Shown piece by piece: positions 32,723 through 53,543 of a stretch of DNA of 64,000 bases. Under the pieces are notes generated by a model. It was not told where the DNA came from, made no database searches, and saw nothing but the letters and a program-made list of their open reading frames with translations. The DNA lies in the NCBI GenBank assembly GCA_963846575.1, contig CAWJWJ010000002.1:896001-960000 (forward strand), given 5' to 3'. The first letter of the stretch is position 1. Each line of letters begins with the position of its first letter. The translations under genes were made by a program, and so were the position numbers. This DNA is from an uncultured Nitrospiraceae bacterium (GTDB lineage: Bacteria > Nitrospirota > Nitrospiria > Nitrospirales > Nitrospiraceae).

Positions 32723-32909
32723 GGGTGGACCTGTGAGAGGGTATTGGCAACGGTCCCGTTGTCAGCGTCTCGATCGGGCGGAGGAACGGTCCTTGGATGG
32801 ACGGCTGTATCCTGTTCGTGTTCCCATACCAGTCACACGATGACGTGCTGGCACAAACCCGGAAATGAGGTGGTGTCTCCGCCGCCTCGCGAGGAAAGGA
32901 GTAGGAGCA

Positions 32910-34086: not shown

Positions 34087-34258
34087 GCTGCGGGCTCGCC
34101 GATGTCTGGGGTTCATGCCGGTCGGAGTGAAATGGTCGGCCACGACGCCTGTGCCGGGTTAGGTGAGTCTATGGGCGTCGTCGATCTGCCTGTCGTGGTT
34201 GTTAGTCGGCATGACCGATGTAGATCGAACGGTCGCCTCAACAGGAAGGAGAACTGCC

Positions 34259-34462
34259 ATGAAACTGAGCGCCAGGAATCAATTTCAAGGAACGGTGACT
34301 CACATCACTGAAGGCCAAGCCATGGCCGAGGTCGTCGTGAAGGTCGGAAATCTGGAGTTCGTGGCCGCCATCACCGAAGGGTCCGTCAAGAGCATGGGAC
34401 TCCAGATGAACGACAGGGTGACCGTCGCCGTGAAGGCCACGGAAGTTATGATCGGAAAATGA
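34259..34462 (+). CDS. TOBE/Mop molybdate-binding protein (molbindin)
   Basis: MKLSARNQFQG...AITEGSV..MGL...VKATEVMI; RBS AGGAG. Confidence 0.9.
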   Translation: MKLSARNQFQGTVTHITEGQAMAEVVVKVGNLEFVAAITEGSVKSMGLQMNDRVTVAVKATEVMIGK

Positions 34463-34544
34463 GCGGAGCGAAGTTGACCTTCTCCGGCGCTGTCCGTGAC
34501 AATACGCCGCCCGGAACGGCTCCGACGATGATTGGGACAGACGT

Positions 34545-36354: not shown

Positions 36355-37089
36355 TTAAAACGCCCCGGTGATACTGGCGCCGAACTTGTCCCGCACAATA
36401 GGGGTGGCTTCCTCGATGTTCAGATGTTTCTGGAGTACGTGGGCCACCGATCGCATTTTGTACGCTCGGGACGGACCTTCCTTTCCCTGCTCCGTGACCA
36501 GCACGTCGGCGACGCAGAGATAGGTCACATCATCGCTCTGTTGCGGCTGCGCCATGCCGGGATACCCGCCCCGGCCGCTCATGGCCATCCGCATCAGGGC
36601 ATTCATGTCCGGCATGGCCCCGCCATTCAGTCCCATGGCGCGCATCGCTTGCCCGTTCATGCCGCCGGGCATTCCCGGGAACAGGCCGCCCATCGCCTCC
36701 ATGTCGACTCCGCCAGCGTTGGCAAGAGGGGTTCCTCCGCTGCCGATGCCCGCGCCGAAACCAGCCTTGGCGACCGCCTCGGGTCTGACTCCCTCTCCTG
36801 CCTTGTGGCAATACACGACCTGGGTCTGTAGCCAATAGTCCGCGTCCACCGGGTCCTTGACGACGTGGTAGCCCTTTGCGCTCAGCCTGGTTGGAATGTC
36901 CGAGGGGGTTGCGCCTTGGTTTTCGGAGGTGTTGCGGATCTGCACATAGACGGTACGTGCGGCACTCGGAGGCAGCAGTATGGAGGTATCGTTGACCAGC
37001 CCGGATCGCAACACGTTGCTGCAACCCGTCAACAGAAGCAGGCCGGCAACCATGCTGCTCATTGCACCGTGGGTGAGGTGCCTGCGCAT
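36355..37089 (-). CDS. TraT-like outer-membrane lipoprotein with a Met/Gly-rich segment
   Basis: Lipobox LTGC; RTVYVQIRNTS, LSAKGYHVVKDP..ADYWLQ. Confidence 0.72.
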   Translation of the reverse strand: MRRHLTHGAMSSMVAGLLLLTGCSNVLRSGLVNDTSILLPPSAARTVYVQIRNTSENQGATPSDIPTRLSAKGYHVVKDPVDADYWLQTQVVYCHKAGEGVRPEAVAKAGFGAGIGSGGTPLANAGGVDMEAMGGLFPGMPGGMNGQAMRAMGLNGGAMPDMNALMRMAMSGRGGYPGMAQPQQSDDVTYLCVADVLVTEQGKEGPSRAYKMRSVAHVLQKHLNIEEATPIVRDKFGASITGAF

Positions 37090-37111
37090 CGTTGATCCCT
37101 CCAGCGCCAGT

Positions 37112-37831
37112 TCAGAAGTGTCCTGCCACCGCCGCGCTCAGTCGCTGCTGCACCAGTGGAGTCGCTTCCTGTTCATCGAGTTTCTTCTGAAGCACGCTCG
37201 CCGCCAATCGCGTTTGGTACACCCCGATCGGGGGCTGCATGCCGGCTTGGGACACAGGCATGCTCCCGCCCGTTTTGACGAGCTCTGTGATCTGAAGATC
37301 CGCGATGCAGGCGTAATTGATGTTCTCATTGGCATCGGGCCGCGACGGTCCGCCGAACATGTTGCCCACGGCACTTCCAAGCCCCTCCGCGGCATTCAGC
37401 CCCATGCTGGCCGCGCCCCCGACCAGGGCACCCTGCGGACCAGCCATGCTCGCCATTCCGGTCAATCCGTGCAGCCCGGACAGGATCGAGCTTCCGATTC
37501 CCGAGCCATACCCACCGGCGACCATGTCCTCCACCGGCAACTCGACCTTGGTTTGGTTGCAGTAGACGATGTTGGTCAGTACCACGTAGGCCGCGGCTTT
37601 GGGATCCTGCACGACCTGGTACCCTTTGGCGCTTAGTCGCGAGGCCAGGTCGGTGAGCGACACGTCCTGATTGTCGGAAGAGTTTCGATTCTGGAGGAAG
37701 ACCGTTCGCGCCGTTGAGGGCGCCAGGATGATGCTGTTGCTGGCCAGGAGATCGGTGTCGCGAACGTTGGCCGAGCAACCGGCCACCAGGAGTATCGCTG
37801 CCAGAAACCCAACGAAGGAGCCTGGAGCCAT
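37112..37831 (-). CDS. TraT-like outer-membrane lipoprotein
   Basis: Lipobox VAGC; RTVFLQNRNSSD, LSAKGYQVVQDP, Gly-rich hairpin, ADLQITE; start could be 37873. Confidence 0.75.
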   Translation of the reverse strand: MAPGSFVGFLAAILLVAGCSANVRDTDLLASNSIILAPSTARTVFLQNRNSSDNQDVSLTDLASRLSAKGYQVVQDPKAAAYVVLTNIVYCNQTKVELPVEDMVAGGYGSGIGSSILSGLHGLTGMASMAGPQGALVGGAASMGLNAAEGLGSAVGNMFGGPSRPDANENINYACIADLQITELVKTGGSMPVSQAGMQPPIGVYQTRLAASVLQKKLDEQEATPLVQQRLSAAVAGHF

Positions 37832-37965
37832 CTGCGCGTTCCCGGGAAGTGTGAGGTTGCCGGCCAGAGACAATCGCGGCGCATTCTAGGTGAATCCCGC
37901 CCGGCTTTGCAATCAAAAGAGTGGCAAAAATCACGGGATAAATAATGAAAAAAAATTCTCGAAAC

Positions 37966-38642: not shown

Positions 38643-38993
38643 TTAGTAGGCCTTGCTGAATCCGGCTTCGCCGTCGTAGTTCCACAACTTTTGCGCGGCG
38701 GACCACCACCAGCCTTGTCGGGTCAGGGCGTCCAGGAACACATTGACATCCGCGTCCTGCACGTCTTTGGTCGCCATGAACCGGCAGCGGTACCAATTCA
38801 CCTGCAGCAGATCCGGACTCACGAAGCCGGGCCAGACCTTCGTGCCACGATTCGAGATGAATTCACATTTGAACGGTCCGATGTCCTCGAACGCCGGGAT
38901 CCCCTTCTCGGTGATAATGTACATATCGATCCCGACTAGGGTGATCTGGCGCTTTTTTTTCGTCGCTTTCGCAGTGTGAGTGAATGTCAGCAT
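38643..38993 (-). CDS. Stand-alone isocitrate dehydrogenase C-terminal domain protein (Thermus/Rickettsia-type IDH tail)
   Basis: LVGIDMY, ISNRGTKVWP, YRCRF, KLWNYDGEAGFSKA; own AAGGAG RBS. Confidence 0.8.
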   Translation of the reverse strand: MLTFTHTAKATKKKRQITLVGIDMYIITEKGIPAFEDIGPFKCEFISNRGTKVWPGFVSPDLLQVNWYRCRFMATKDVQDADVNVFLDALTRQGWWWSAAQKLWNYDGEAGFSKAY

Positions 38994-39031
38994 CGCGCTT
39001 CTCCTTTTCCATTCAGCGAGTGATCTCGCGC

Positions 39032-40048
39032 TTAGGCCGTTGCATGCATTTGATCTACGATGGCTTGCGCGTACTCATCCGTTGACGCGGTTCCACCGAC
39101 GTCATACGTCACGTGTTTTCGCTGATCGAGGACCGCAAACATGGCCTTTGTAATCCGATCGGCTGCCGTGTGCTCCTTTAGCCAGCGTAGCATCATGATT
39201 CCGGAGACCAGCACAGCCGACGGATTGACCTTCTTCATCCCGGCGTACTTCGGCGCGGATCCATGCACCGCTTCGAAGATCGCGCAGTCGTCGCCGACAT
39301 TGGCGCCCGGCGCGAAGCCGAGGCCGCCCACCAGGCCGGCGCACAGGTCCGTGAGGATGTCGCCGTACAGATTCGGGAGCACCAAGCAATCAAACTGCGC
39401 CGGATTTCTCACGAGCTGCATGCAGCAATTATCCACGATGATGTCGCCGGATTCGATATCGGGATATTTCTTCGCGACCTCTCGGAAGGCATCGAGAAAG
39501 AGGCCATCGGTCATCTTCATGATGTTGGCCTTGTGAACGCAGTAGACCTTCTTGCGTCCGTTCTCTTGGGCCCACTTGAAGGCGAAGTCGGCGATGCGAT
39601 AGGAGCCAGGCCAGGTAATGACCTTCAAACATTGCGCGACTTCGTCTGACACCATATGCTCGATGGCCGCGTAGCAATCCTCGGTGTTCTCCCGAAAGTT
39701 CAGGATATCGATCTTGTCCCAGGGCCGCTTGAGCACCGGGATCAGTTTCGCAGGCCGCACGTTGGCGTAAAGATCGAACACCTTCCGGAGCGTCACATTC
39801 GCGCTCTTGTGACCGGTTCCGACCGGCGTGGTGGTAGGGCCTTTCAGCGCGATCTTGTTTTTGGCGATGGCTTGCACTGTCTTGTCCGGCAGCAACGTGC
39901 CGTGCTTATCCAAGCAGTCCAGTCCGATCTCTTCATACTCCCATTTGATATCGACACCGCTGGCATCGATCACAAGCCGGACCGCTTCGCAAATTTCCGG
40001 GCCGGTGCCCTCTCCCGGTAACATCGTCACGACATGCTGTGTGGCCAT
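39032..40048 (-). CDS. icd: Isocitrate/isopropylmalate dehydrogenase family, probably isocitrate dehydrogenase
   Basis: PGEGTGPEI, LKGPTTTPVG, SANVTLRK, RENTED, HKANIMK, NLYGDILTD, FEAVHGSAP. Confidence 0.85.
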   Translation of the reverse strand: MATQHVVTMLPGEGTGPEICEAVRLVIDASGVDIKWEYEEIGLDCLDKHGTLLPDKTVQAIAKNKIALKGPTTTPVGTGHKSANVTLRKVFDLYANVRPAKLIPVLKRPWDKIDILNFRENTEDCYAAIEHMVSDEVAQCLKVITWPGSYRIADFAFKWAQENGRKKVYCVHKANIMKMTDGLFLDAFREVAKKYPDIESGDIIVDNCCMQLVRNPAQFDCLVLPNLYGDILTDLCAGLVGGLGFAPGANVGDDCAIFEAVHGSAPKYAGMKKVNPSAVLVSGIMMLRWLKEHTAADRITKAMFAVLDQRKHVTYDVGGTASTDEYAQAIVDQMHATA

Positions 40049-40110
40049 GAACAAATCTCCCTTAAGCAGCAAGAGGTGTCGGACCATCCGCTCCCTCGGT
40101 TGGAGATCAC

Positions 40111-40126
40111 TGCAAGTCAGGTTCCA
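40111..40126 (-). promoter_or_regulatory. Sigma54 (-24/-12) promoter of icd
   Basis: Minus strand TGGAACCTGACTTGCA versus consensus TGGCAC-N5-TTGCW. Confidence 0.7.
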
Positions 40127-40243
40127 GACTGGCCGACGACTGCCGTGGGCCAGGAGGCCCGGAGTTTCCCTGTTATTTCTCGGCTCGTCGCGGCCTGGAG
40201 TGTCCGGCGAAGCAGCATCCTTCCCGGGCCTGATGGACATTCC

Positions 40244-40288
40244 GTGCATCGCCACACGAGCTGCACCGCGGCCGGTGCGCCACTGCTC
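40244..40288. promoter_or_regulatory. Putative upstream activator sites (icd)
   Basis: GTGC-ATCGCC-ACAC (40244-40257) and one-mismatch GTGC-GCCACT-GCTC (40275-40288). Confidence 0.5.
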
Positions 40289-40706
40289 GACGCTCTCATC
40301 TCAGACTGTGATACGACGACAGATATCGGGGGTGAGAGAGGGGTAGGTCGCAGGGCACATAGTGCGCCGTGACTATTGGGCTTGACAGAGTTGCGCCCGG
40401 AATCGCTCGTCTAGGCTGAAGCGTGACGTGATGACCAGAGGCGGATAATCACCGGGAGAATCCGGCAGGCGTAAGTATGGTGACAACCGATGCCGGGGTC
40501 CTGAACTGCACAACGTCCTGGCTCTTGTGGTACGGTTGAATCGATCGGCTCCCGGACGTTCCCCCAGGTTTCGTATGCCGCCAACCGTCTCATTCCTCTA
40601 CACTCACCACCGCACGGCCCAGGGTATCTTGTGCAATCGGGTTCAGACAGTGTTTCTAACCCTTGCCACAGAACCTTGGCAGAAATCCCGCTGGTGCATC
40701 CCGCGG

Positions 40707-42107
40707 TTAGCCGCCACATCTCGAGATCGCAGCCTGCGCCAGGGAATGGCAATAGCCGCCTAACTCCAAGCTGCCGGTTACTACGACGAGTCCATGGGCG
40801 CCTGCTTCTAGGACAGCCCTCTCAAACGCGTCGCCAGGGTCGGTCACGACCTCTGCCGCGGCCCGCGTGTAGGAACGCCAGACACCGGCAAGATCCTGAG
40901 GGGCGACCGCGCGGTCGTGCGGATACTGGGTGAAGATGGCCTGGTCAGCTCCTGCGCCGGCCAGATGCCGGATGATCTTTTCAATCTCTTTCTCTCGCAA
41001 CAGTGAGACGACCAGGATCGTTCGGCGGCCTTCGCGGATGTTTCGAATGGTTGAAGAGAGACTGGCGGCAGCCGGAGCATTGTGCGCTCCGTCGATCACG
41101 ATCGCCGGTTGTCCGGTGAGCACTTCGCAGCAGGCCGGCAAGCGAATCTGCTCGAATGTGCGGCGAAGGGCCGGTCCATCCAATGGGGAGACCAAACCGC
41201 GGCGCCGGAGGACATCGTAGGCTGCGAGCGCATGCGCGGCATTGGTCGCTGTGAACTCGGCCGGGGAGGCCAATCTGATTCCTTCCCAAGTCGAATCCCC
41301 GACCCGAAGCGAGCAGAATCCGCCAGAGCCGGTGCGCATGATGTCCTTCGCCTCGTAGTCGCGACCGAACAACAAGACCGGGGCCTTCAACTGTTCGGCT
41401 CGAGACAGAACCACCGACCGCGGGCCGTCCTCCATGGGCCCGCACACGACCGGCGTGAGCGGCTTGACGATGCCGGATTTCTCCGCTGCGATCTGTTCAA
41501 GGGTGTCACCCAAGACATCCATATGATCGTAGTCTACGTTCGTGATGACCGAGACCTCCGGCGCGAGGATATTGGTTGCGTCTTGCCGCCCGCCGATGCC
41601 GACTTCGATGACGGCATAGTCTACCTTGGCGGCACGGAATGCGAGGAACGCGGCGGCGGTGAGGAATTCGAAAGGACTCATCTCGACGACGCCCCAGTCC
41701 ATTAGCGATTTGAGATGATTACAGGCGTCCACCAACTCCTGTTCGCTGATCGGTTGGCCGTCGATGGAGATACGCTCTCGAAAATGCCCGAGATGGGGAC
41801 TGGTGAAGCGACCGACCTTCAGGCCGCTGGCCTGGATGAGGGCCGCAGTCATCCGACTGACGCTGGTTTTCCCGTTCGTGCCTGTCACGTGCACGGACCG
41901 ATAGGCTCGGTCGGGACGTCCCAGTTCCTGCAAACAGCGGGCATTGGCTCCGAAGCTCACGGTGCCATCCGAGGGCCGGCCGCGCAGGATACAGGCTGTT
42001 TCAAGCTGGCGCAGAAAGTCCGTGACCTCCTCATACGAGGAAAAGGGCACGGTCCAGTACGGGAGCATCTTCTTCGACTCCGTGTCGTGCATAGATACCT
42101 CGTTCAT
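40707..42107 (-). CDS. folC: Folylpolyglutamate synthase / dihydrofolate synthase
   Basis: HVTGTNGKTS, FTSPHL, EVGIGGRQDATN, DHMDVLG, EKSGIVK, DGAHN, TGSL. Confidence 0.92.
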   Translation of the reverse strand: MNEVSMHDTESKKMLPYWTVPFSSYEEVTDFLRQLETACILRGRPSDGTVSFGANARCLQELGRPDRAYRSVHVTGTNGKTSVSRMTAALIQASGLKVGRFTSPHLGHFRERISIDGQPISEQELVDACNHLKSLMDWGVVEMSPFEFLTAAAFLAFRAAKVDYAVIEVGIGGRQDATNILAPEVSVITNVDYDHMDVLGDTLEQIAAEKSGIVKPLTPVVCGPMEDGPRSVVLSRAEQLKAPVLLFGRDYEAKDIMRTGSGGFCSLRVGDSTWEGIRLASPAEFTATNAAHALAAYDVLRRRGLVSPLDGPALRRTFEQIRLPACCEVLTGQPAIVIDGAHNAPAAASLSSTIRNIREGRRTILVVSLLREKEIEKIIRHLAGAGADQAIFTQYPHDRAVAPQDLAGVWRSYTRAAAEVVTDPGDAFERAVLEAGAHGLVVVTGSLELGGYCHSLAQAAISRCGG

Positions 42108-42122
42108 GTGCGCCGCAGCCTG

Positions 42123-45100
42123 TCAGGCCCGCTCGGCGGGAACAGCCTCGGTGGTGACGGCAATCCATCCGTCTGCGCCGTTGTAGCGATAATGGCGCCG
42201 TTCTACCGGCTCAAAGGCGATCAGATGAAGCCAGCGATTGTTGAACAGCTTCTCCAGTAACGGTTGGCGATTGATGATGGCTGAAATCCGGTCCCGCGGG
42301 GCTTCGACAATCGTCGCGAGGCGCATGGGTTCGTGATACGGACGCGTGCCGTTCATGACAGTCTGGACGGGCAGTCCCATCCGGAGATCACTCCGCCCTC
42401 CTGCCATCACCCCGATACGGCCCGTGACATTGTGATACACCTTGCTTCCGCTGCCATAGATCTCGGGGGCCACGGTCGAAAAATAGTATTCCAGGTTGAT
42501 CCATTGAGCCACGATCAGCGGCGCCGTCATAATGATCTCAAGGAGCTTCCCGTCGGTGTCCGGCCGATGGTCGTAGGAGTGCAGGAAGGACCGCCCCGCA
42601 AGATCGCTTCCCTGGGTCAACCGCCTGCTCCCGATGATGAAGAAGCTGTTCTTTGCCAACCCCCATTCAGGACGCACTTGCGCCCAATCCATGCTGCGGA
42701 GCTGCACGTCGCGTCTCGTGGGCATGGCCTGCAGCGCCCGGCCGCGCTCCGCAGAGGCCATGACCCCGGTTTCGTTGACGTCCTCCAGCACCTGAGTCAG
42801 TTCCTTGCGATGCGTCGGCGGCACATCTTCCAGGTCCGCGATCGTGACGTGATCCGTCGTCGTGTCGTGAAACGCCGCGAGAAAATGAGTGTCGGGCGGG
42901 ATGGCGAGTCCACGCTTCGCCAACAGTTCACGCACCTGTGGCCGATTGGCGATCATGGCGAACGCGCGCGCGTTCGGAAGCCCATGACTTCCTCCGCAGG
43001 CACCGCAATCCAACGCGGATTCGTAGGGGTTGTTTTGAGAGGTGCTGCCGTGACCGCACAGGATGACGAGACGGGACCATGTTTCGGTCAAGCCCATGAG
43101 CCGGAGCGACGTCTCCACGTAGTAAGCCTGCTCGTTCAGGGTGAAGCCCGTTTGCGTGATCCGATCGAGCTGTGCTGCCATATCACGCGGAGTGATGCCA
43201 CAGTCGCGGCGGAGTTCCTCGATCACACTCGTTTCATGATGCTTCGAAATGACCAGGAGGTGCCCGAGATCGCTCGGCACCATTTTCAAATCATGGTCCG
43301 TTCCCAGCGCTTGAAGCCGGATGCCGTCGAGGGTGTCAGCCGTTAATGTGCTGCCTGAGATCTGAAATCTGGTTCGCAGCCACCGGACGATCCGCATCCG
43401 CTGCTCGACCGCAACCATTTCCTCCGCTTCGCTTGTTGGGAGCTTGTCCACCGTCAACGTGGTCGCGACCGCCGGCATGAAGACCTGTTTCAAACGGCCG
43501 GCCAGGCGGTGATACCAGCGAGGACATAGTGTCCTCCCCAACAACGGCACGGCGAAGAACCATCCGATCGCTTCCACCATGACATAGGGCGTAATCACGT
43601 TATACTTAAGGTCGTGCAGAAGCTCATGTCCGGCCTTGGCCACCTGCGTACTGGTTTTTTGGCGCTGCGCGGCCTTGCTCTGATAGGTCCTCGGAACCTC
43701 CCGAATGATGTGCTTCGGCTTGAGGAGCACCGGGCACAGGTCCAAGGTCACGTCCGTGCCCAACGCGCGATAGGCAAGAGGCAGCCCGAAGAATCCGGCA
43801 AAACCAAAGGTCTCATAGCCCCCGCGCTGCTCGAGGTGCCGTCGAAAGACTTCCGACCGTACATCGATACAAAAAGCGAACTGGGCGAGGGGGCGCACAG
43901 GGCCCCGTTCTTGGCTCTTCAAGCCGACATCGTGACCGTGCACTTCCAGTTCTCGAAGGATGGTGTGCTGGTGTGCGAGCTCATAAGCCTCCAGCCACGT
44001 GGGGCCGTGCCGCCGTTCCGGAAACGCGCGAAGCCAGCGCAGCAGCGTCGTGAGATCGCTCGACGCCGTCGAGTGGATCCGCTCTTTCGGAACATCGAGG
44101 GCCTGAGCCAGACGGAATAACATGCGCGCCTGGTCGGTGGCGGCCTCCTTCCGGCGGAACATCCGGTGTTCATCGTACCATCGCCGGCCGAGATCTTCCC
44201 ACGCCTGGGAATTCGACGCGCGCCACCATCGCTGGAGACGCGCGGCTTCCGACGCCGCTTTCCTCGGGAGATCGCCCTGCACGAGCCGCCGGCGGAACCA
44301 CACCGCATGGGGAAACTGTCTCGCGTACGTCTGAGCCGTATCGACATCCCCCGAGCCGTGTAAGAGTTTCCGACAGGAGACTGCCACCAGTTCCCTCTCA
44401 TAAAACAGACGGACGGCGAGATACTTCACGAGGTCGATACGATAGGCCTCTTGCCAGGGATAGGATGTTTGCTCGGCGCGCCACTTGATAAAGCCTGCCC
44501 ACCCGGGGAGCGCCGCCACATGGCGTGACAGATATTCTCCCCACGCCGATCTGGGGATCTTTAAACGATCGAGCGATTCCAGGAGGACGTCTTCAGGACG
44601 GTCGGATAAGAGTCTAATCTTTTCGAATGCCCGTTTGATGCCGAGCAGGGACAGCCCCAGGTCATACTGCGCAGCGGCCTTCCAGGCACGGAAAAATGTA
44701 TTCTCGCGGCCGGGCATTGGCCAGGTGGCTTCCCCCTCGTCGCAAAAAGCGGCGCACCATTTGATTAATTGGCTGTCGATCCGGTCCTCCAGGTCGGTTC
44801 CGAACGTGCGATCGCACCAGGCCGCCATCGTTGTCCGGTTGGGCAACTCATCCGGTTCACCTAAGCGCAGGCTCTCATGCTCCTCCCAGGTCTCGGAGTC
44901 CGGAATCGACGCAAGCCGCTGCGTCAGTTGTGTGAACGAGTCCGTGTTCTCGTCCGGCGATTCGGCTGCAGCTGAGGCGGATCGGCCCGGGGACGTTGGC
45001 TCCACTCCATGCACCATCACCGCACGGAGCACGTCCAGGTGGAACAGCCGGCGATCGCCGAAGCGGATGTGTGTTTCCGTGGCCAGCGGGCGCAACGCTG

Positions 45101-45371
45101 CATCCACATGTCCTGATTGGATGCGGCCGCATCGAAACGCGTCGCGATACGCGGCACAGGAGAGGTACCCTCGCCCCCCGAAGAGCTGTTCCCCCCGCCG
45201 CACGGCCTCGTCGAAGTGGAGCTGTTCAAACCCCTGCAGCGGATTTCTCGAGATGAAGGTCCGCATCGGCCAGAGGGGCGCCACTACCTCGCCCGCGAGG
45301 TTGACATAGGAGCGCAACTCCATCCGCTGCACGTCGGTGTAGGATGTCGGCCTGCCGGTCGTTTGTGCCAT
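42123..45371 (-). CDS. dabA: DUF2309 inorganic carbon pump subunit (DabA/MpsB-like)
   Basis: APLWPMRTFISRNPLQG, LPGWAG, FCIDVRSE, GFAGFFG, GHGS...LDCGACGG, DWAQVRPEWGLA. Confidence 0.92.
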   Translation of the reverse strand: MAQTTGRPTSYTDVQRMELRSYVNLAGEVVAPLWPMRTFISRNPLQGFEQLHFDEAVRRGEQLFGGRGYLSCAAYRDAFRCGRIQSGHVDAALRPLATETHIRFGDRRLFHLDVLRAVMVHGVEPTSPGRSASAAAESPDENTDSFTQLTQRLASIPDSETWEEHESLRLGEPDELPNRTTMAAWCDRTFGTDLEDRIDSQLIKWCAAFCDEGEATWPMPGRENTFFRAWKAAAQYDLGLSLLGIKRAFEKIRLLSDRPEDVLLESLDRLKIPRSAWGEYLSRHVAALPGWAGFIKWRAEQTSYPWQEAYRIDLVKYLAVRLFYERELVAVSCRKLLHGSGDVDTAQTYARQFPHAVWFRRRLVQGDLPRKAASEAARLQRWWRASNSQAWEDLGRRWYDEHRMFRRKEAATDQARMLFRLAQALDVPKERIHSTASSDLTTLLRWLRAFPERRHGPTWLEAYELAHQHTILRELEVHGHDVGLKSQERGPVRPLAQFAFCIDVRSEVFRRHLEQRGGYETFGFAGFFGLPLAYRALGTDVTLDLCPVLLKPKHIIREVPRTYQSKAAQRQKTSTQVAKAGHELLHDLKYNVITPYVMVEAIGWFFAVPLLGRTLCPRWYHRLAGRLKQVFMPAVATTLTVDKLPTSEAEEMVAVEQRMRIVRWLRTRFQISGSTLTADTLDGIRLQALGTDHDLKMVPSDLGHLLVISKHHETSVIEELRRDCGITPRDMAAQLDRITQTGFTLNEQAYYVETSLRLMGLTETWSRLVILCGHGSTSQNNPYESALDCGACGGSHGLPNARAFAMIANRPQVRELLAKRGLAIPPDTHFLAAFHDTTTDHVTIADLEDVPPTHRKELTQVLEDVNETGVMASAERGRALQAMPTRRDVQLRSMDWAQVRPEWGLAKNSFFIIGSRRLTQGSDLAGRSFLHSYDHRPDTDGKLLEIIMTAPLIVAQWINLEYYFSTVAPEIYGSGSKVYHNVTGRIGVMAGGRSDLRMGLPVQTVMNGTRPYHEPMRLATIVEAPRDRISAIINRQPLLEKLFNNRWLHLIAFEPVERRHYRYNGADGWIAVTTEAVPAERA

Positions 45372-45411
45372 GCTGCTCACCTCTCCCTTCTGTCCCGCTT
45401 ACACCCAGCAA

Positions 45412-45427
45412 AGCAAGAAGAGGGCCG
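45412..45427 (-). promoter_or_regulatory. Sigma54-type promoter of dabA-folC
   Basis: Minus strand CGGCCCTCTTCTTGCT (GG-N10-GC with TTGC). Confidence 0.6.
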
Positions 45428-45538
45428 CGACACGGGTTCCCTTGGCCGCGGGGACGTAACTACTTCGTGTGCAAAGAGAAACCGACTCCTGGCGTCATCG
45501 GGTGACCAACGAGAACCGCACCACTCACCGAGGAAGGC

Positions 45539-45601
45539 GTGCGTCAGCACACGCGCGTGCATGCCTGCACGTAGCCGCCAACATCACGTGCGGTTGGGCA
45601 T
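45539..45601. promoter_or_regulatory. Putative upstream activator sites (dabA)
   Basis: GTGC-GTCAGC-ACAC (45539), GTGC-ATGCCT-GCAC (45557), GTGC-GGTTGG-GCAT (45588). Confidence 0.6.
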
Positions 45602-45667
45602 AGCGGGGCCGCGGATTGGAAGCCTCGGGGACGTTGGAGCGGAGCGTTCCGCCTGCATGGTCGGCGG

Positions 45668-46465
45668 TTACATGTGACCGAGTTTACGGAGTGTTTCCAT
45701 TCCACGGCCTTCGTCCTGCGCGCGACCTGCGCGTTCGGCGGTCTTGGTGCTCCGCAACTCGAAGACGACCTGCGGAATCGTCTTCGCGCAGGAGTTCACG
45801 GTGCCCGTGCAGGGCATGCAGCCGAGGCTGCGGTAGCGAGTGCCGGCCCCTTGGTCGAAATATAGTTCCGGAAGGGGAACCCGTTCCTGTTCGAGGTATT
45901 CCCAGATATTCAGCTCGGTCCAATCGAGCAGTGGATGCACGCGTACGTGAGAACCGGCAGGAAATGTCGTTTTGTATTGATCCCATAGTTCGGGCGGCTG
46001 ATCGCGGTAATCCCATTCCCCATGTTCGTCCCGGAGAGAGAAGTAGCGTTCTTTGGCTCGCGTGCCTTCCTCGTCCGCGCGGATGCCGAGAATGACGGCC
46101 GTCCACCCATGTTCGGCGATCGTGTGCTTGAGGGCCTCGATTTTCATGGCCGTGCAGCAGGTGACGCGCCCCTGCTCAGGGCCCATACCGCCCGCGAGGG
46201 CCTTCTTGTTCTGACCGACGACCAGATTGAGCCCCCACTCGCGGCAGAGCCGGTCCCGATAGTCGATTAACTCGGGCATCTCGTAGCCCGTGTCGATATG
46301 CACGAGAGGAAACGGTACATGACCGAAGAAAGCCTTTCGAGCCAGCCATAATAGCACCGTCGAGTCCTTGCCCATCGACCAGAGCATGGCGAGGTCATCG
46401 AAGTGTTTGTAGGCTTCGCGAAGAATGTAGACGCTCTGATCTTCCAGGGCTCTCAGGTGCTGCAT
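45668..46465 (-). CDS. cysD: Sulfate adenylyltransferase subunit 2
   Basis: [47 protein letters not shown]. Confidence 0.9.
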
Positions 46466-46791
46466 GAGTATGCTCCTCTTCAATAGGCTGCCGGCTCGGA
46501 GAACGTGCGATTCGACTCGAGGCCGAGCAATGGAGTCCTTCTGTCTGATGGTGCCGTGGTCTGCCTCACTGTGACCAGTCCGATCGATCCCTCCAGCGCG
46601 ATCCACAGCCTCCCGTTTCGTCGTGCGCGATGGGGGGCGTCCTAGCGTAGGCGAGGTTGACGATCGGAAGCTCCCTCAGCTCTCGTAGCGCCTCAGCGTG
46701 ACTCACACCCGGGGCACGGCCACGAGCGAGGAGACCTTGAGGAGCGGAGGGCATTCAGGAGGTCCTGTTGCATCGGGAGGTGGAGCAATGG

Positions 46792-48198
46792 TCAGCCCGT
46801 TGGTCTTCGCCGCCGGTCCAGCATCCAGCGCGTGATGCCGAGATGTTTGGCAGCCAGGGTCTTGTTGCCGTCCGACCGACGCAGCACCTCGGTAATGATC
46901 TGGTCTTCGAGGTCGTTCAGCGATTGTTCGCCAACTCGGAAAGAGAGGTGAACGGCGGTGGGATCGGACGCATCTGGCTCAGGACTCGGATGTTCTAGTG
47001 ACGTTGTGAGCGAGGTCTGGTTCGCGCCATGAAGATCGGAAGGGAAGTTGCCGGCTTCGAGGGTGGGGCCATGGCAGAACAGGACGGCCCGTTCCATAAG
47101 ATTGCTCAATTCACGGATGTTCCCGGGGAAGCGGTATTGGCGCAAGAGGGTCTGCGCGCTCCCGCCCAACACACGACCCGGCTTCTTGAGGGCGATGGCG
47201 GAACGGGCCAGGAATTGCTCGGCCAGCGGAATGATGTCCTCGGCACGTTCGCGAAGGGGCGGGACGACCAATGTGACCACATTGAGTCTGAAATAGAGAT
47301 CCTCTCGAAACTCGCCCTTCGAGACGGCTTCTTTGAGATTGCGATTGGTCGCGGCCATGAACCTGACGTCGACCGGGATGGTGGTTGCCCCTCCGACACG
47401 TCTCAGTGTTCGTTCTTCCAACACCCGGAGGAGCTTGGCTTGCAGAGGGAGCGGCAAATCCCCGATTTCATCGAAGAGAACCGTCCCTCCTTCGGCCAGT
47501 TCGATCAGACCGCATTTCCTGCCGATCGCCCCGGTGAAAGATCCCTTTTCATGTCCGAACAATTCAGACTCGAAGAGCTCACGCGGAATCGAGGGGCAGT
47601 CCACTTCTGTGCAAAGCTTGTCGGCCCGGGGTCCGTTAAAGTGGATCACACGGCTCATGTATTGCTTGCCGGTGCCGGTTTCGCCTTGCAAGAGGATTGT
47701 CACCCGGTCGTTCTTCGCCAGTTCGCGGATCTGTTGCAGGAACACCTGTGTGACGGGACTGTTCGCGATGATGCGATCGATCGCATAGCGTTTCGCATCC
47801 TGCCCGCTGTGCAGTTGGACCTGCCGGCGCAGCGTGAGCAGATCCGTCGCGCGGCGCAGCGTGTGATGGAGGTCGTCCATGTCGATGGATTTGGCGACGA
47901 AATCGAAAGCCCCGAGCCGCATCGCTTCCACCGCGTCCTTCACCGTCCCTCTGGCGGTCAGCACGATGACGAGAAGCTCCGGAAGGGTGTCTTTCACCCG
48001 GGCGAGAACCTCCAGACCCGAAAGGTTGGGCATGACGAGGTCCAGGATGAGAATGTCTGGTTCGAAGGAGCGAAGCAGCGCCAGGGCCTCTTCCCCCGAT
48101 CCGGCGGTTTGCACGGCATAGCCTTGCGCCGTGAGACGCAGGGAAAAGGCTTCCCGAACGGATGCCTCATCCTCTACGAGCAGAAGTTGCCAGCCCAT
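46792..48198 (-). CDS. Sigma54-dependent response regulator (NtrC family)
   Basis: REC domain, GETGTGK, GSFTGA, FPGNIREL, C-terminal HTH. Confidence 0.93.
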   Translation of the reverse strand: MGWQLLLVEDEASVREAFSLRLTAQGYAVQTAGSGEEALALLRSFEPDILILDLVMPNLSGLEVLARVKDTLPELLVIVLTARGTVKDAVEAMRLGAFDFVAKSIDMDDLHHTLRRATDLLTLRRQVQLHSGQDAKRYAIDRIIANSPVTQVFLQQIRELAKNDRVTILLQGETGTGKQYMSRVIHFNGPRADKLCTEVDCPSIPRELFESELFGHEKGSFTGAIGRKCGLIELAEGGTVLFDEIGDLPLPLQAKLLRVLEERTLRRVGGATTIPVDVRFMAATNRNLKEAVSKGEFREDLYFRLNVVTLVVPPLRERAEDIIPLAEQFLARSAIALKKPGRVLGGSAQTLLRQYRFPGNIRELSNLMERAVLFCHGPTLEAGNFPSDLHGANQTSLTTSLEHPSPEPDASDPTAVHLSFRVGEQSLNDLEDQIITEVLRRSDGNKTLAAKHLGITRWMLDRRRRPTG

Positions 48199-48199
48199 G

Positions 48200-50164
48200 C
48201 TAATCCTCGCGTTTCAGTGGAAGCCAGATGTCCACGACAGCCCCGCTCCCGGATGGACTGTGAACCAGTAACTGGCCGTTGTGCCGCTCGATAATGTCGC
48301 GGGTGATGGTCAACCCAAGCCCGACCCCCTTCGCTTTTCCATTCGTAAAGAACGGTTCATAAATGCGTTCCAGATCTTCGGCTGAAATGCCTTTTCCGGA
48401 GTCCGCAAAGGTGAGCAGCAGCCCCGCGCCTCTCCTGGTCTCCGGTCTCATGCTGATGGTCAATTCGCCCCCGTTCGGCATCGCATCGATCGCATTCATG
48501 GCAATGTTCAGGCAGACTTGGAGGATGTGGGCTCGCGAAGCCTCCATCGATGGAAGATCCGCGGCCGCGTGCTTTTTCACAGAGACGCGGTGCTTCACCA
48601 GGTTCGGACGCAGCAAGGCAAGTGCGTCATCGAGCAGTTCAAGAACGTGGCAGGGGGCTATCTCGAAGGGGCGCGGCCTCAACTGTCCGAGGTGGGATTC
48701 CAGGAGATCGTCGATCCGCGCCGCTTCGCGCGCGATCAGGCGGCAGCGGTCGCGCGCAGCCTGAGGAAGGGTGTCCTGGTCAGCTAAATGAGTGGCCAGA
48801 CTTCCGAGCCCGATGAGTGGATTCCTGACCTCGTGAAGGATGCCTCCGGCAAGTTGCCCGACGAGTTTCACCTGTTCGGTATGACGCAGGGCTTCCAGCA
48901 TTTGCTCGCGCTCGCTGAGATCGGTCAGGATCGCAAGAAAATACCGGATGGTCCCGTCCGGATCCTTGACCGGGCTCACGCTTTCCCATGCCAGGAACTC
49001 GGAGCCGTCCTTGCGGCGGTTGATGACACGGTCCACGAAGGCCGCTCCGGATCGGATCGCGCCCCACATGCGCTCGAAATATTCCGGCGGATGTTTTCCG
49101 GATCTCAACAATGCCGGCGTTCGACCGATGACCTCCGTGCTCGTCCAGCCCGACAACCGTTCCATCGCGGGATTCCATTCCAGAAGCGTCCCTTGGGTAT
49201 CGGTCAGCATCACGCCGTCCTGCACCAGCTCAAACATCCGGTGATAGAGCTGAAGCTGCGTTTCCTCCCGTCGCCATCGTTCGAGCACCGTGGCGACCGT
49301 GTTCGCGACTAAGCAGAGAAACTCCAATTCTTTCGGGGTGAAATCCCGCACGATCTTGCAGTGCGCTCCCATCACCCCGTACACCCGGTCCTGGACCATC
49401 ATCGGGACGCTCATGCCGGAGATGCCGCCATGTTCCGAGAGGAGCCTCGACGGCATAAAGCGCGTTTCGGTTCGCAAGTCCCGCACGACCACCGGCTGTC
49501 GTTCGCGGATCGCAAAACCCGCTTGAGAATGGGTACCGCCCTCCACCGTCAATGTTCCGATGAGACCGTCGAGCCAACCGGTGCCGGCGACGAGATAGAG
49601 ATGCTCGTCAGATTCACGAGGAATGAGAATTTTACAGAGTTCCACGTTCAGTGCCTGGGCCGTGAGTCGCGCGGCCTCGTTCATAATCTCTTGGACCGGG
49701 CTTCCGCTCACCGCCAGCGTTCCGATCTGCGCGAGCACCGATTGAAATCGGGCCACCTGGGAGGCTTCCCGTGACAGCAGGGCCCGCTCCGTGACATTTT
49801 CCAGCACGAGGAGCACACCCGTGGCGCTCCGGTAAGGAACGACGTTGAATCGGCATTCGTAAATGAGCGGATTGCCGGCTTGATCGGTCAGGCGATACTC
49901 CTTGGTCTCCCGGGCTCCGGGCGCGTCCTGACTCCAGGCCTTGACCGCCTCGATCAACCTCGCTCGCAATGAGGGTTCAGACCCTCTGAAGGGCGTGTCG
50001 ACCAATTCACCAAACTGCTTGTTTTCGAAGATCACGGTCTCGTGGGAAACAAAACAGAGGCCCCCCGGGATGCAGTCCCTGAGCCAGGCCAAGACTTCCG
50101 TGGCGGGCACTTCCGATCGCGCCTGGGCTGAAGGCTTGGGGTGTGATCGACGGGAGGAAGGCAT
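48200..50164 (-). CDS. Cytoplasmic GAF-PAS sensor histidine kinase
   Basis: GAF (SQAGFAIRERQPVVV), PAS (WNPAMERLSG, RRKDGS), HEVRNPL, NAIDAM, GVGLGL; no TM segment seen. Confidence 0.9.
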   Translation of the reverse strand: MPSSRRSHPKPSAQARSEVPATEVLAWLRDCIPGGLCFVSHETVIFENKQFGELVDTPFRGSEPSLRARLIEAVKAWSQDAPGARETKEYRLTDQAGNPLIYECRFNVVPYRSATGVLLVLENVTERALLSREASQVARFQSVLAQIGTLAVSGSPVQEIMNEAARLTAQALNVELCKILIPRESDEHLYLVAGTGWLDGLIGTLTVEGGTHSQAGFAIRERQPVVVRDLRTETRFMPSRLLSEHGGISGMSVPMMVQDRVYGVMGAHCKIVRDFTPKELEFLCLVANTVATVLERWRREETQLQLYHRMFELVQDGVMLTDTQGTLLEWNPAMERLSGWTSTEVIGRTPALLRSGKHPPEYFERMWGAIRSGAAFVDRVINRRKDGSEFLAWESVSPVKDPDGTIRYFLAILTDLSEREQMLEALRHTEQVKLVGQLAGGILHEVRNPLIGLGSLATHLADQDTLPQAARDRCRLIAREAARIDDLLESHLGQLRPRPFEIAPCHVLELLDDALALLRPNLVKHRVSVKKHAAADLPSMEASRAHILQVCLNIAMNAIDAMPNGGELTISMRPETRRGAGLLLTFADSGKGISAEDLERIYEPFFTNGKAKGVGLGLTITRDIIERHNGQLLVHSPSGSGAVVDIWLPLKRED

Positions 50165-50292
50165 GGCATCACTCCGTTCGTATCCCGCACATGATCAACG
50201 CAATGCTCGACCTTGCGTGGAGAGTATACCCAGTCCGGCTGCGGACCGTCGAGGGCGGCATCGCCCCGAGCAGCATAGGGGGGCGGTCTTCC

Positions 50293-50622
50293 TCACTTGG
50301 CGACGAAGTGCTCGCGGCGACTGACCGCGACGTCGGTGACGAACATCGCGCCGGAATGCTTGTTGAACAACGGCCCCAGGCCGGCCAGAATCGGTTCGAC
50401 CCGCTCTTCCGGCACCACCGTGAAGACAATCACCTGGCTGCTGATATCGTTGAACAACAAATGACCCTCATGGAAGCCGTGCTGGCCTTTGCCGGACACA
50501 TTGTTGATGATCGTGTAGCCGGTGGCGCCCACCCGATCCAGCAGATCAGTGACGAACTTCAGATGCTCGCCCTGAACCACCACCTTAATCTCTTTCATGG
50601 AATGCAGCGTTAAATTCATCAT
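50293..50622 (-). CDS. PII-like signalling protein (SbtB/DAB-associated type)
   Basis: GATGYTII..VSGKG.HG, PII length, GGAGGAG RBS. Confidence 0.85.
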   Translation of the reverse strand: MMNLTLHSMKEIKVVVQGEHLKFVTDLLDRVGATGYTIINNVSGKGQHGFHEGHLLFNDISSQVIVFTVVPEERVEPILAGLGPLFNKHSGAMFVTDVAVSRREHFVAK

Positions 50623-50797
50623 GCAATTCTCCTCCTACGTTACGGCATCCAGGTAGGCTGTCGTGTTGTATAGAACGCTCCTGATGGATGAATGTTCGCA
50701 TCGGCCGATACCGGGGGAGCACCCCTCTTGCGACCTGTACAGAGGAGCGTACCTCCGTGGGCTGCATCCGTCGACATCTGTCGAGGCCCTGTCGTCA

Positions 50798-52504
50798 TCA
50801 CAGCTCCAATTCAGGTGCGTCCCTCCGGCTTGTTCGAATCTTCATCCGCTGGGGGCGCTGTGCGAGGGCCCGAAGGACATCCTCAATATAAAGGCCGTTC
50901 AGGAAGGCGACATAGGCGCGCGTCTCGAGGGTACCGACCCAGTCGGGAATCGAGAACCGCATGCCGTGGGCCCTGCCGTATAAGAGGATCCACACGGCGA
51001 CGATGAGGCAGGTCGCGAGAAAGACAACCGCATCGAAGAGGCCGGTAGGCCAGGCTGCCGTTTGAAAATAGGCTGCAGCCTGTCCCGGATCGGGATAGAG
51101 GAAATGGGTGAAGGATTCGCCCGCCCATAAATAGGTCCAGCCTATCAGGGCAAGCGTCGAGACCATCGTCAGGGACACTTTCCACGAGGCCACCGCGTGG
51201 AGGCGATAGAGACTGAAGATCGCTTGGGATGAGGTGACCCAGGCGAAGAACAGAAAAATCAAGGTGCTCTGCGTCTCAAACAGCGGGATACGAACGAGGC
51301 CATGAGCGGCGAGCAGGATGATCAGCGGTAACAGCAACGTGACCCCTAATCCGGTCGCCCAGGTGACCAGGGAGAAGCCCGGTATTTCTTCGACATGCTC
51401 GTGCGCGGGAAGTTTCAGCTCGGTGCGCGCTTTCTGAATGGTGGCTCCCGAATTGAGAAACAATGCGGCCTTGAACAGTCCATGGGCGCAGAGATGGTAC
51501 ACGGAGAGGGCAAAGGCCCCTAAGCCACATTCCATGATCATGTAACCCATCTGTCCCATCGTAGAATAGACGAGCGTGCGTTTGATGCTGTATTGGGTCA
51601 GCATCGTGGCGGCTCCGACCAGGGCCGTCAGCCCCCCGATAAGAAACATTAGATGAAGCGAGGCCGGCGCCACGCCGTAGAGCGGGGCCAGCCGGTTGAC
51701 CAAAAATCCTCCGGCATTGACGATCCCGGCGTGGAGCATCGCCGAGACAGGGGTCGGCGCCTCGATGGTCTCCGGCAACCACACGTGAAAGGGGAATTGG
51801 GCGGATTTCGTCATGATCGCGATCAAGATCAACAGCGTAATCGCCGTTACCGAGTTGAGTTCGAAGACCGTTCCGCTCCACAACGAAGGCGTAGCAGACG
51901 ATTGGATCCTACGAAACAATTCCGGGAGATCCAGCGTATCGAATTTGAGATAGATGAGAACACAGCCGAGTAGCAAGGCCGCATCGCCAAGTCCCTGCAC
52001 ATGCAACGTAATTCGTCCCGCCTTGCGTGCGGCGAGACTCGCCGGATTGAACGAGAGCAGGGCCATCAGCAACCAGCTGACAGCGTGCCAAAAGCCGAAC
52101 AGCCAGAACAGATTTCCACTGGTCACTAAGCTCAAGAGCACGAAGGTCAGCAGGCTCAGCAGGCTGAAGAATCGGACATAGGCCTGGTCGCCTTGCATGT
52201 AGCGCTGTGAAAACACGTGAATCACCAGGCTCACACCTGTGATGAGAACCATCATGACGGCGGAAAGGCGATCAATCAGGACCGTATACTGAATAGATTT
52301 GGGAAGGAAGCCGGAAAACGTAAGGAACACAGGCTCGCTCTGCACGACATGATACAGCGAAGCGAGCGCCGCGACTGTTGAGAGCGACAGGGCGCTGACG
52401 CCGAGAGTGGAGCTTCTCTCGCCAAATCTGGTTCCGAGAAGCGCGATCAGGCCGCTGGCCAGGAGTGGCGCAAAGACCGCAACAAGTGGAAAGAGAATAT
52501 CCAT
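50798..52504 (-). CDS. dabB: NuoL/ND5-like membrane subunit of the DAB inorganic carbon pump
   Basis: IDRLSAVM, KSAQFPFHVWLP, APTPVSAMLHAG, YSTMGQMG, HGLFKA; DUF2309 gene in the same cluster and no other nuo genes. Confidence 0.85.
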   Translation of the reverse strand: MDILFPLVAVFAPLLASGLIALLGTRFGERSSTLGVSALSLSTVAALASLYHVVQSEPVFLTFSGFLPKSIQYTVLIDRLSAVMMVLITGVSLVIHVFSQRYMQGDQAYVRFFSLLSLLTFVLLSLVTSGNLFWLFGFWHAVSWLLMALLSFNPASLAARKAGRITLHVQGLGDAALLLGCVLIYLKFDTLDLPELFRRIQSSATPSLWSGTVFELNSVTAITLLILIAIMTKSAQFPFHVWLPETIEAPTPVSAMLHAGIVNAGGFLVNRLAPLYGVAPASLHLMFLIGGLTALVGAATMLTQYSIKRTLVYSTMGQMGYMIMECGLGAFALSVYHLCAHGLFKAALFLNSGATIQKARTELKLPAHEHVEEIPGFSLVTWATGLGVTLLLPLIILLAAHGLVRIPLFETQSTLIFLFFAWVTSSQAIFSLYRLHAVASWKVSLTMVSTLALIGWTYLWAGESFTHFLYPDPGQAAAYFQTAAWPTGLFDAVVFLATCLIVAVWILLYGRAHGMRFSIPDWVGTLETRAYVAFLNGLYIEDVLRALAQRPQRMKIRTSRRDAPELEL

Positions 52505-52547: not shown

Positions 52548-52563
52548 AGCAAGAATAGGACCG
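52548..52563 (-). promoter_or_regulatory. Sigma54-type promoter of the dabB operon
   Basis: Minus strand CGGTCCTATTCTTGCT, 14/16 identical to the dabA element. Confidence 0.6.
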
Positions 52564-52670: not shown

Positions 52671-52703
52671 GTGTATGGGCGCACTGACTGTGCGGCGGTG
52701 CAC
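52671..52703. promoter_or_regulatory. Putative upstream activator sites (dabB)
   Basis: GTGT-ATGGGC-GCAC (52671) and GTGC-GGCGGT-GCAC (52690). Confidence 0.6.
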
Positions 52704-52994: not shown

Positions 52995-53543
52995 ATGACC
53001 GCCGATGAATTTCGCCACATCAGGGAACAATTAGGGCTGACGCAGGAGCAGCTCGCAGAGGCTCTGCGTACCACGCGTGTGTCGGTCGCTCGTTATGAGG
53101 CGGGCATGCGGCGAATTGGCGGGGCCGTCGAAGTGGCGGTCACGCAACTCTCGCGCAGGGTTGAGGTTCCAATGGCCGGAGTCGTGGCGGCCGGTCTGCC
53201 GATTGAACCGGTAGCTCAATCGGAATGGGTCGAGGTGCCACCCAGCATGGTGCGCTCGGGCGACACCTTCGCACTGCGTGTGAAAGGGGATTCCATGATC
53301 GAGCATGGCATCCTCGCGGGCGATCTGGTCGTCATCCGAAAGCAGGCGACTGCCCAAAATGGTCAGACGGTGGTGGCATTGGTGAACCGGGAAGCGACGA
53401 TCAAAACCTACTTCAAGCGCGAACGCCACATTGAACTCCGTCCTGCCAATGCCGCGATGAAGCCGTTTGTGGTGACAGCCGCGGACGAATTTACCATCGA
53501 GGGGGTGCTGGTCGGCGTGATTCGTCATTGCGATAACAGGTGA
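52995..53543 (+). CDS. XRE-HTH plus S24 peptidase (LexA/CI-like) repressor
   Basis: LGLTQEQLAEAL HTH; VAAG cleavage site, GDSM catalytic Ser, ATIK catalytic Lys. Confidence 0.9.
   Translation: MTADEFRHIREQLGLTQEQLAEALRTTRVSVARYEAGMRRIGGAVEVAVTQLSRRVEVPMAGVVAAGLPIEPVAQSEWVEVPPSMVRSGDTFALRVKGDSMIEHGILAGDLVVIRKQATAQNGQTVVALVNREATIKTYFKRERHIELRPANAAMKPFVVTAADEFTIEGVLVGVIRHCDNR

Follow-up and report, generated by a model that had tools for sequence, protein, structure and literature searches.

The 64,000-nt window analysed here (the whole stretch of contig CAWJWJ010000002.1 of GCA_963846575.1 that was examined, from an uncultured Nitrospiraceae bacterium) carries an island of nine intact minus-strand open reading frames (ORFs), dabB-P-II-HK-RR-cysD-dabA-folC-icd-icdC, in which HK and RR are the histidine kinase and the response regulator (the activator) of a two-component system. 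With a probability that we put at about 0.7, this island is the trimmed core of a sigma54 two-component regulon for inorganic-carbon limitation in Nitrospirota that use the tricarboxylic acid cycle in reverse (rTCA cycle). Genes were named by Pfam/NCBIfam profile searches, and the source genome (G000, 4.2 Mb) is 99.9% complete. A preliminary description of the same DNA had listed nine co-oriented genes in this order, with dabB and dabA about 5.4 kb apart. The ORFs and their families agree with this list, and the distance from the dabB stop to the dabA start is 5,417 bp, but the row consists of at least three promoter units rather than one. A synteny survey, which that description had proposed, reveals the same order in two other genomes (G027 and G003), at 79-94% identity. 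In 7 further genomes, among 20 stretches fetched from the genus, the order is dabB-dabA1-P-II-HK-RR-cysD-dabA2-folC-icd-icdC, with two dabA genes. The nine-gene order is thus repeated in relatives and is not due to chance. The named relatives of the island proteins are Nitrospira or Nitrospiraceae.

According to the proposed mechanism, the soluble kinase would phosphorylate the NtrC-type activator when CO2 is short, and the latter would bind tandem GWGY-N6-RCAC sites conserved some 110 bp upstream of sigma54 promoters. Three units would be switched on, dabB-CPII-kinase-activator-cysD2 (CPII being the P-II-like protein), dabA2-folC2 and icd-icdC. DabA2, encoded by the dabA gene of the island, would dock on DabB, as suggested by its residues and by patterns of gene loss, to form a second proton-driven CO2-hydrating pump, added to that of a separate dabBA operon devoid of these promoter elements. 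The extra isocitrate dehydrogenase (IDH) and FolC, and in relatives Sua5, LarB, BioD and IlvD, would serve as reserves for reactions dependent on CO2, on bicarbonate or on a lysine carbamylated by CO2. Most likely, the kinase perceives the shortage in an indirect way, through either the redox state of the cell (flavin-type PAS) or a small ligand in its conserved GAF domain.

Shared promoters, their probable regulator and its possible trigger

Upstream alignments reveal a GG-N8-TTGCW box, typical of sigma54 promoters, at a constant position in front of dabB, dabA2 and icd, three unrelated genes that also share two GWGY-N6-RCAC palindromes 95-130 bp upstream of this box. Neither the box nor the joint signal is found before folC2 and dabA1, both second genes of their units. 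Boxes alone (1,045) and lone half-sites (791) are frequent in the genome. The joint signal of tandem palindrome and box occurs exactly three times in the 4.2 Mb, always in the island, a count that is partly circular because the motif was derived from these loci and this family; it was found neither in 5 simulated genomes nor in 1.19 Mb of unrelated loci, nor before the other dabBA operon of the genome. In 244 related, hence not independent, Nitrospiraceae genomes with a completeness of 90% or more, searches detected the kinase in 99 and the joint signal in 101 (both in 93, kinase only in 6, signal only in 8, neither in 137). The signal is therefore present in 93 of the 99 genomes with the kinase versus 8 of the 145 without it, the reversed pattern used as a control giving 3 matches over all 244 genomes. 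Site conservation and this co-occurrence with the kinase suggest that the activator binds the GWGY-N6-RCAC sites. A version of the motif with a 7-base spacer gave no matches, the actual spacer being of 6 bases, and sigma70 promoters and terminators were predicted at chance level only. The leader of icd also contains, downstream of the sigma54 box and upstream of the ribosome site, a 17-base stretch (window ~40075-40100, minus strand) that is near-invariant in 14/14 aligned relatives, possibly an RNA element or a protein site.

The kinase is soluble, with an invariant H444 and an ATP lid. Its GAF domain is strongly conserved across Nitrospiraceae and a second family of the phylum (f24), with invariant Cys177-Lys178/Arg235/His sites. 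Its structure model reached a pTM of 0.42 and a fold search gave only generic PAS/GAF/kinase matches. The activator combines a REC domain (phospho-Asp D53), an AAA+ domain with Walker A/B and a Fis-type helix-turn-helix (HTH); its loop reads GSFTGA in 35/41 orthologues and GAFTGA in 6/41. Like the NtrB-NtrC and NifL systems, the island pairs a soluble kinase having a NifL-like PAS with a REC-AAA-HTH activator and a nearby P-II-family gene. Unlike them, it has a CPII-like rather than a GlnB/GlnK protein and no nitrogen genes among its targets, and both kinase and activator score below the NCBIfam cut-offs for NtrB and NtrC. The P-II-like protein matches the PDB 5D4N/5D4L group with an E-value of 7.5e-32 and SbtB with one of 8e-4. 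We take the 5D4N group to be carboxysome-associated P-II proteins (CPII) with a bicarbonate response. Neither f24 nor the loci with sulP ahead of the kinase gave a P-II match next to the kinase gene. Since it is absent beside the kinase in f24, the P-II-like protein more likely serves the pump than the sensor. The predicted complex of a CPII trimer with the kinase scored 0.00 and was not used either way. The idea that the pump has its own sensor system, put forward in the preliminary description, thus stands inasmuch as common promoter elements link these genes with the regulator, but not for P-II, which is no obligatory part of the sensor.

Which genes are controlled was assessed from 166 distinct promoters, in loci chosen around folC2 or listed motif matches, a biased sample outside which lie 91 further motif matches. 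Among the matches listed, the first gene is icd (49), dabB (27), dabA (26), sulP (23), a gene for an exported protein of ~800 aa (U800, 13), a phosphodiesterase gene (12), an mpsC-like gene (5) or cysD (3), then larB, folC, ilvD and icdC (1 each), with 4 unassigned. In several genomes, sulP replaces dabBA ahead of the kinase-activator pair. The neighbours of folC2 in the 39 genomes that carry it, as far as contig ends allow, are dabA (32), icd (31), cysD (28), sua5 (18) and larB (12), more rarely bioD, ilvD and sulP (4 each), sbtA and a monomeric IDH gene (1 each). These sets are mix-and-match: gene order and content vary between genomes and any member may be absent. The predicted targets and neighbours are mainly inorganic-carbon transporters (DAB, SulP, SbtA) and second copies of CO2-dependent enzymes (IDH, FolC, Sua5, LarB, BioD, IlvD). 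FolC has a carbamylated lysine, and Sua5, LarB and BioD use CO2 or bicarbonate as substrate. In the consulted part of PMC10880623, IDH is given as CO2-using (Table 1), and SbtA, SulP and DAC as carriers of dissolved inorganic carbon (DIC). IlvD carries a carboxylated lysine according to the text available of PMC9314677, and loss of FolC renders growth of S. pneumoniae CO2-dependent, as cited in the accessible part of PMC10714769.

The regulator extends beyond Nitrospiraceae. The kinase was found in 52/351 genomes of a sample of the phylum, four of them with weak 34-36% matches, and in 11/13 genomes of f24. In this family, dab genes lie beside the kinase-activator pair at 7/8 loci, icd-icdC at 6/8 and ilvD with sua5 at 3/8, while no folC2 or cysD2 matches were found at these loci. 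A single palindrome with a sigma54 box occurs once per genome in 4/5 f24 genomes, before dabB (3) or icd (1).

Two recurring exported proteins of these loci deserve a description. U800 (L066:1682-4066) belongs to no Pfam and no Atlas family, TPR-like and lectin-like folds being a lead only. Another, of ~590 aa (L052:11862-13628), has IPT/TIG repeats; G000 holds a 56% homologue at C2:1057778, without the promoter.

What the kinase perceives leaves room for two other readings. The kinase could sense CO2 or bicarbonate directly, for instance at the Cys177-Lys178/Arg235/His sites of the GAF domain, with DabA2 as an exchangeable high-affinity head and second-copy enzymes that need less CO2. This is possible, though rather doubtful. 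If true, the regulon would list the CO2-limited steps of the cell, ATP sulfurylase newly among them, and would amount to a carboxysome-free low-CO2 strategy for rTCA autotrophs. The same regulon could also answer another trigger, the kinase sensing oxygen, redox or acidity and the CO2 genes being part of a broader stress or niche response. The PAS domain is indeed closest to PDB 3EWK and NifL 2GJ3, which we take to be FAD redox sensors, and keeps W367 in 18/18 and N382 in 17/18 sequences; several targets are moreover exported proteins with no carbon link. We nevertheless consider this unlikely: three unrelated types of DIC transporter (DAB, SulP, SbtA) and six families of CO2-dependent enzymes gather here, and no gene of oxidative stress or pH homeostasis comes first behind the 166 promoters (4 unassigned), among the matches listed. 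It also overlaps the carbon-limitation reading, because carbon shortage would itself over-reduce the cell.

Second-copy enzymes and a DAB pump with a probable alternative head

G000 contains, besides the island, an ordinary adjacent dabB-dabA-P-II operon (C1:322856-328174), housekeeping folC and cysD-cysN genes, and a monomeric IDH gene beside that of ATP-citrate lyase. The island genes are therefore second copies, its icd, folC and cysD not encoding the main enzymes of the cell. Since an ATP-citrate lyase domain is present, no bacterial microcompartment shell gene and no beta-carbonic anhydrase were found in G000, and its only RuBisCO-like match is partial, the gene inventory fits an rTCA autotroph without carboxysomes; RpoN is present too. 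The preliminary view of a CO2-supply module in such an autotroph holds in that shared promoters group DIC uptake with CO2-dependent enzymes, but these are second copies and the pump is not natively split.

FolC2 is FolC-like on sequence criteria (TIGR01499, 330 bits for a cut-off of 163): as in FolC (dihydrofolate/folylpolyglutamate synthase), it keeps the P-loop, the Glu/His of the Mg site and, in 54/54 sequences, K210, which we take to be the lysine that is carbamylated in FolC. Unlike FolC, it has a Cys-Cys pair at the ATP-site Arg, a different N-terminal loop and, as a second copy, sigma54 control. The position that is presumably the ATP-site Arg of the C-terminal domain is a Cys in 49/52 members of its clade and an Arg in 65/67 other FolC. 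Identity is 50-82% inside this clade and drops to 39% outside; the clade comprises about 106 of the 120 clusters listed, every named member being Nitrospira/Nitrospirota. Tandem pairs of genes of this clade (~75% and 52% to the window copy) are seen in L132, L134, L136 and L140.

CysD2 (NF003587, 351 bits for a cut-off of 195; PDB 1ZUN, E 3e-62) has a PP-loop. No cysN was found beside cysD2 in 51 island loci, while it accompanies the housekeeping copy in 5/5 genomes. A Glu (15/15 island-type sequences and 40/41 island loci) replaces a Lys found in 104/105 housekeeping-type proteins. That this Glu mimics a carbamate is only a lead, because some distant CysD have Asn there. Both Nitrospira CysD types (window 45668-46465; G000:C1:966244) have Cys-Cys and CxxC motifs like the iron-sulfur sites of APS (adenosine 5'-phosphosulfate) reductase, which P. 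syringae CysD lacks. Outside the window, at G000:C1 ~966,970, the housekeeping cysD of the cysD-cysN operon has a frameshift close to its 3' end, through either an assembly error or a real mutation; in the latter case, cysD2 would be the sole intact copy.

The best PDB match of Icd is 2D1C (496 aa), and Icd/IcdC is a split form of this Thermus-type enzyme. The motifs KSANVTLRK and HGSAPKYAG, present in 60/60 island copies, presumably correspond to the isocitrate-site Ser/Asn/Arg/Tyr/Lys/Asp and to the Lys-Tyr coenzyme (NADP) motif, which identifies Icd, from its sequence, as a dimeric NADP isocitrate dehydrogenase.

It could be argued that a pathway for biosynthesis or surface modification, with a sulfated or glutamylated product, is encoded by cysD2, folC2 and the genes for the phosphodiesterase, U800 and the TIG-repeat protein, and that the pump only supplies it with bicarbonate. 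The distinct FolC2 clade with its Cys at the ATP-site Arg and occasional tandem pairs, and cysD2 without cysN, would suit such a pathway. Its enzymes, however, would hardly come in mix-and-match sets in which any member is dispensable; furthermore, each enzyme has a housekeeping twin, and f24 retains the pump, the regulator and icd without folC2 or cysD2 matches. This makes a pathway improbable.

Concerning the pump, dabB and dabA are apart because dabA1, the partner of this dabB, was deleted beside it, and the distant dabA is a separate paralogue. The natively split DAB pump of the preliminary description is thus ruled out by a scar: both ends of dabA1, 5' and 3', survive in decayed form in the 175 bp between dabB and the P-II gene, where blastx matches DabA1 residues 7-40 (E 2e-7) and blastn matches each end of the dabA1 of G014 at ~72%. 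The scar differs in G027 and G003, and a larger remnant persists in G026. The RR-cysD spacer carries two more scars, of larB and of the U800 gene. The window dabA belongs to a separate clade, DabA2 (13/40 rows of a quick tree, support 100). Where dabB and the kinase gene share a contig and a strand, which is the case in 49 genomes (G026, G232 and G204 being excluded for contig breaks), dabA1 is absent from 13, and all 13 possess DabA2; it is kept in 36, of which 17 have DabA2 and 19 do not, so that none of the 19 genomes without DabA2 has lost dabA1. In a DabB tree of 27 rows, these losses map to three branches or more. In 9 of the 13 genomes (G118, G125, G170, G171, G173, G176, G196, G201 and G195, the last showing a second truncated context), this dabB is the only or main type-1 dabB found. 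Because all 13 genomes without dabA1 carry DabA2, the latter is likely an alternative head for this DabB that substitutes for DabA1 upon its loss.

Its residues are consistent with this role. The putative Zn ligands were rightly reported as kept: the Cys-x-Asp-x-Arg, His, Cys site (C504, D506, R508, H777, C792) is invariant in 32/32 DabA2, as are NNPYE[SA]..DCGACGG, W899, L908, the elbow E603, the lid GFAGFFG and the gate C549. DabB-coupling motifs, the membrane elbow and the gate Cys are described for solved DAB complexes in the parts consulted of PMC13684180 and 10.64898/2026.03.13.711513. DabB is NuoL-like, with the proton-path residues H258, H337, H341 and K345. Retention of the elbow, gate Cys and coupling motifs rules out DabA2 as an uncoupled soluble carbonic anhydrase. 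The last alternative, a decaying island with a dabB orphaned by the loss of dabA1 and genes adjacent through rearrangement only, would explain the three deletion scars beside a complete dabBA operon elsewhere but is very improbable, given nine intact ORFs, the same order in G027 and G003, conserved promoters, and dabA1 losses that coincide with DabA2 in 13/13 cases, 9 of them where this dabB is the only or main one.

Two further observations concern DAB genes. A third CPII-like gene (G000:C1:692810-693502) comes after a short piece of dabA that contains a stop, and the two appear to be what is left of a third DAB operon after deletion of most of it. In relatives, icdC is followed by an MpsC-family (PF10057) gene (L052:18867-19529; 23/39 folC2 genomes) that was not found in G000.

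Expression, known systems and significance

Transcript data come from the consulted Table S1 of PMC8407350, for N. moscoviensis cultures at 5% CO2 with KHCO3 (one condition). Two clusters were assigned by gene content and order in this table, NITMOv2_2959-2981 and 3280-3292. Island copies have far fewer reads per kilobase per million (RPKM) than housekeeping ones: folC 6 and 17 versus 151, cysD 7 and 21 versus 100, ilvD 15 versus 615, bioD 3 versus 42, dabA 6 versus 147, icd 2 and 71 versus 659. The kinases and activators of these clusters reach 137-244 RPKM. This pattern at high CO2 fits an off state.

Several points weigh against a carbon-limitation regulon, beyond the partial circularity of the motif count and the relatedness of the genomes compared. 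Induction cannot be read from a single condition with high CO2, under which the products of one icd-icdC pair are clearly present (14 and 9 unique peptides) and a dabA next to a kinase gene reaches 166 RPKM. None of 5 f24 genomes yielded the site in tandem form. The activator has GSFTGA instead of GAFTGA, although we take it to be a natural variant, and FolC2 has lost the ATP-site Arg. We know of no CO2 link for CysD, the phosphodiesterase, U800 or the TIG-repeat protein. Moreover, tblastn with one DabC-like query gave no dabC match in G000. DabC is required in those DAB1 complexes that possess it, according to the part consulted of PMC13684180.

The pump resembles the DAB/DAC/MpsAB pumps (H. 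neapolitanus DAB1/DAB2, T. albus DAB1), as described in the consulted parts of 10.1101/476713, PMC13684180 and 10.64898/2026.03.13.711513. It shares with them the PF10070+PF00361 pair, zinc ligands, lid, elbow Glu, NNPYESALDCGACGG and DW..RPEWGL motifs, gate Cys and the His/His/Lys path of DabB. It differs by its subunits lying in two promoter units, by two DabA paralogues per DabB in many relatives, and by sigma54 control, no dabC found and no carboxysome.

Low-carbon regulation involves CcmR/CmpR and SbtB in cyanobacteria. In H. neapolitanus, it involves LysR and Crp/Fnr regulators (10.1101/476713, part consulted). As in these regulons of Calvin-cycle autotrophs, one regulatory system would govern DIC transporters, and a P-II-like protein accompanies a transporter; unlike them, the island uses a histidine kinase and a sigma54 activator, and its targets are an rTCA enzyme and second-copy CO2-dependent enzymes rather than RuBisCO or shell proteins.

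Nitrospira are driving forces of nitrite oxidation and of complete nitrification in soils, in waters and in treatment plants, settings in which they are often limited by alkalinity. A 2024 review (PMC10880623) treats as an open question how rTCA autotrophs cope with low CO2; its section 7 notes co-location of DIC toolkit genes with rTCA genes and calls the mechanism yet to be studied, and its consulted text mentions neither a regulator nor a DNA motif nor a set of accessory enzymes. Full-text literature searches, with subscription papers, Fig. 2 of this review and bioRxiv supplements outside their scope, returned no description of the regulator, motif or gene set, in line with the preliminary statement that the arrangement had no known account; in the parts consulted, 10.1101/476713 describes the pump only, and PMC12542776 and PMC12516955 do not mention the regulator or motif. 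The present analysis supplies a candidate regulator, a predicted binding site, three promoters and a target list. The regulon is probably a means for Nitrospira-type nitrifiers to keep growing at low CO2, and its kinase, a candidate CO2- or redox sensor carried by 99/244 genomes of the family, could serve as a genomic marker for low-carbon tolerance.

Features of the island and its flanks

Table 1. Features of the island, in window positions; promoters and activator sites are predicted.
Feature	Position	Strand	Basis
Upstream activator site 1, two GWGY-N6-RCAC palindromes	52671..52703	-	conserved in 8 aligned dabB upstream regions
sigma54 -24/-12 promoter of dabB-CPII-HK-RR(-cysD)	52548..52562	-	GG-N8-TTGCT, fixed place before dabB in relatives
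dabB, membrane proton-path subunit of DAB pump, 568 aa	50798..52504	-	PF00361/PF00662; 78% to dabB with adjacent dabA1
Scar of deleted dabA1, decayed 5' and 3' ends	50602..50794	-	blastx and blastn
P-II-like protein, CPII/SbtB side of family	50293..50622	-	PF00543; PDB 5D4N/5D4L
Soluble histidine kinase (PAS-like, GAF, NifL/MmoS-like PAS, HisKA, HATPase)	48200..50164	-	profile/structure matches
NtrC-family sigma54 activator (REC-AAA-HTH; D53, GSFTGA, Fis-type HTH)	46792..48198	-	Pfam/NCBIfam
Scar of lost larB	46644..46733	-	blastx 60% over 30 aa, E 9e-6
Scar, 3' end of lost ~800 aa exported-protein gene (U800)	46469..46605	-	alignment; tblastx E 1e-8 to L053
cysD2, second ATP-sulfurylase small subunit without cysN, 265 aa	45668..46465	-	NF003587
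Upstream activator site 2	45539..45570	-	upstream alignment
sigma54 promoter of dabA2-folC2	45412..45426	-	upstream alignment
dabA2, zinc beta-CA-like (carbonic anhydrase) catalytic subunit, own clade	42123..45380	-	PF10070 E 3e-267; tree; residues
folC2, second FolC-family ligase, 461 aa (466 from upstream ATG at 42107)	40707..42092	-	TIGR01499
Upstream activator site 3	40244..40288	-	upstream alignment
sigma54 promoter of icd-icdC	40111..40125	-	upstream alignment
icd, second isocitrate dehydrogenase, dimeric type, 338 aa	39032..40048	-	PF00180
icdC, stand-alone C-terminal domain, fused in Thermus-type IDH	38643..38993	-	PF18324; Atlas cluster of 88

A LexA-like XRE-HTH/S24 repressor gene (window 52995-53543, plus strand) adjoins the island. 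A 79% homologue of this repressor also flanks a cysD-dabA2-folC2-icd cassette in G004, which hints at a shared insertion site or a mobile context. The 3' flank of the island consists of two tandem genes of TraT-family lipoproteins (window 36355-37873, minus strand) and a modA-mop-modB-modC molybdate uptake cluster (32865-36298, plus strand).

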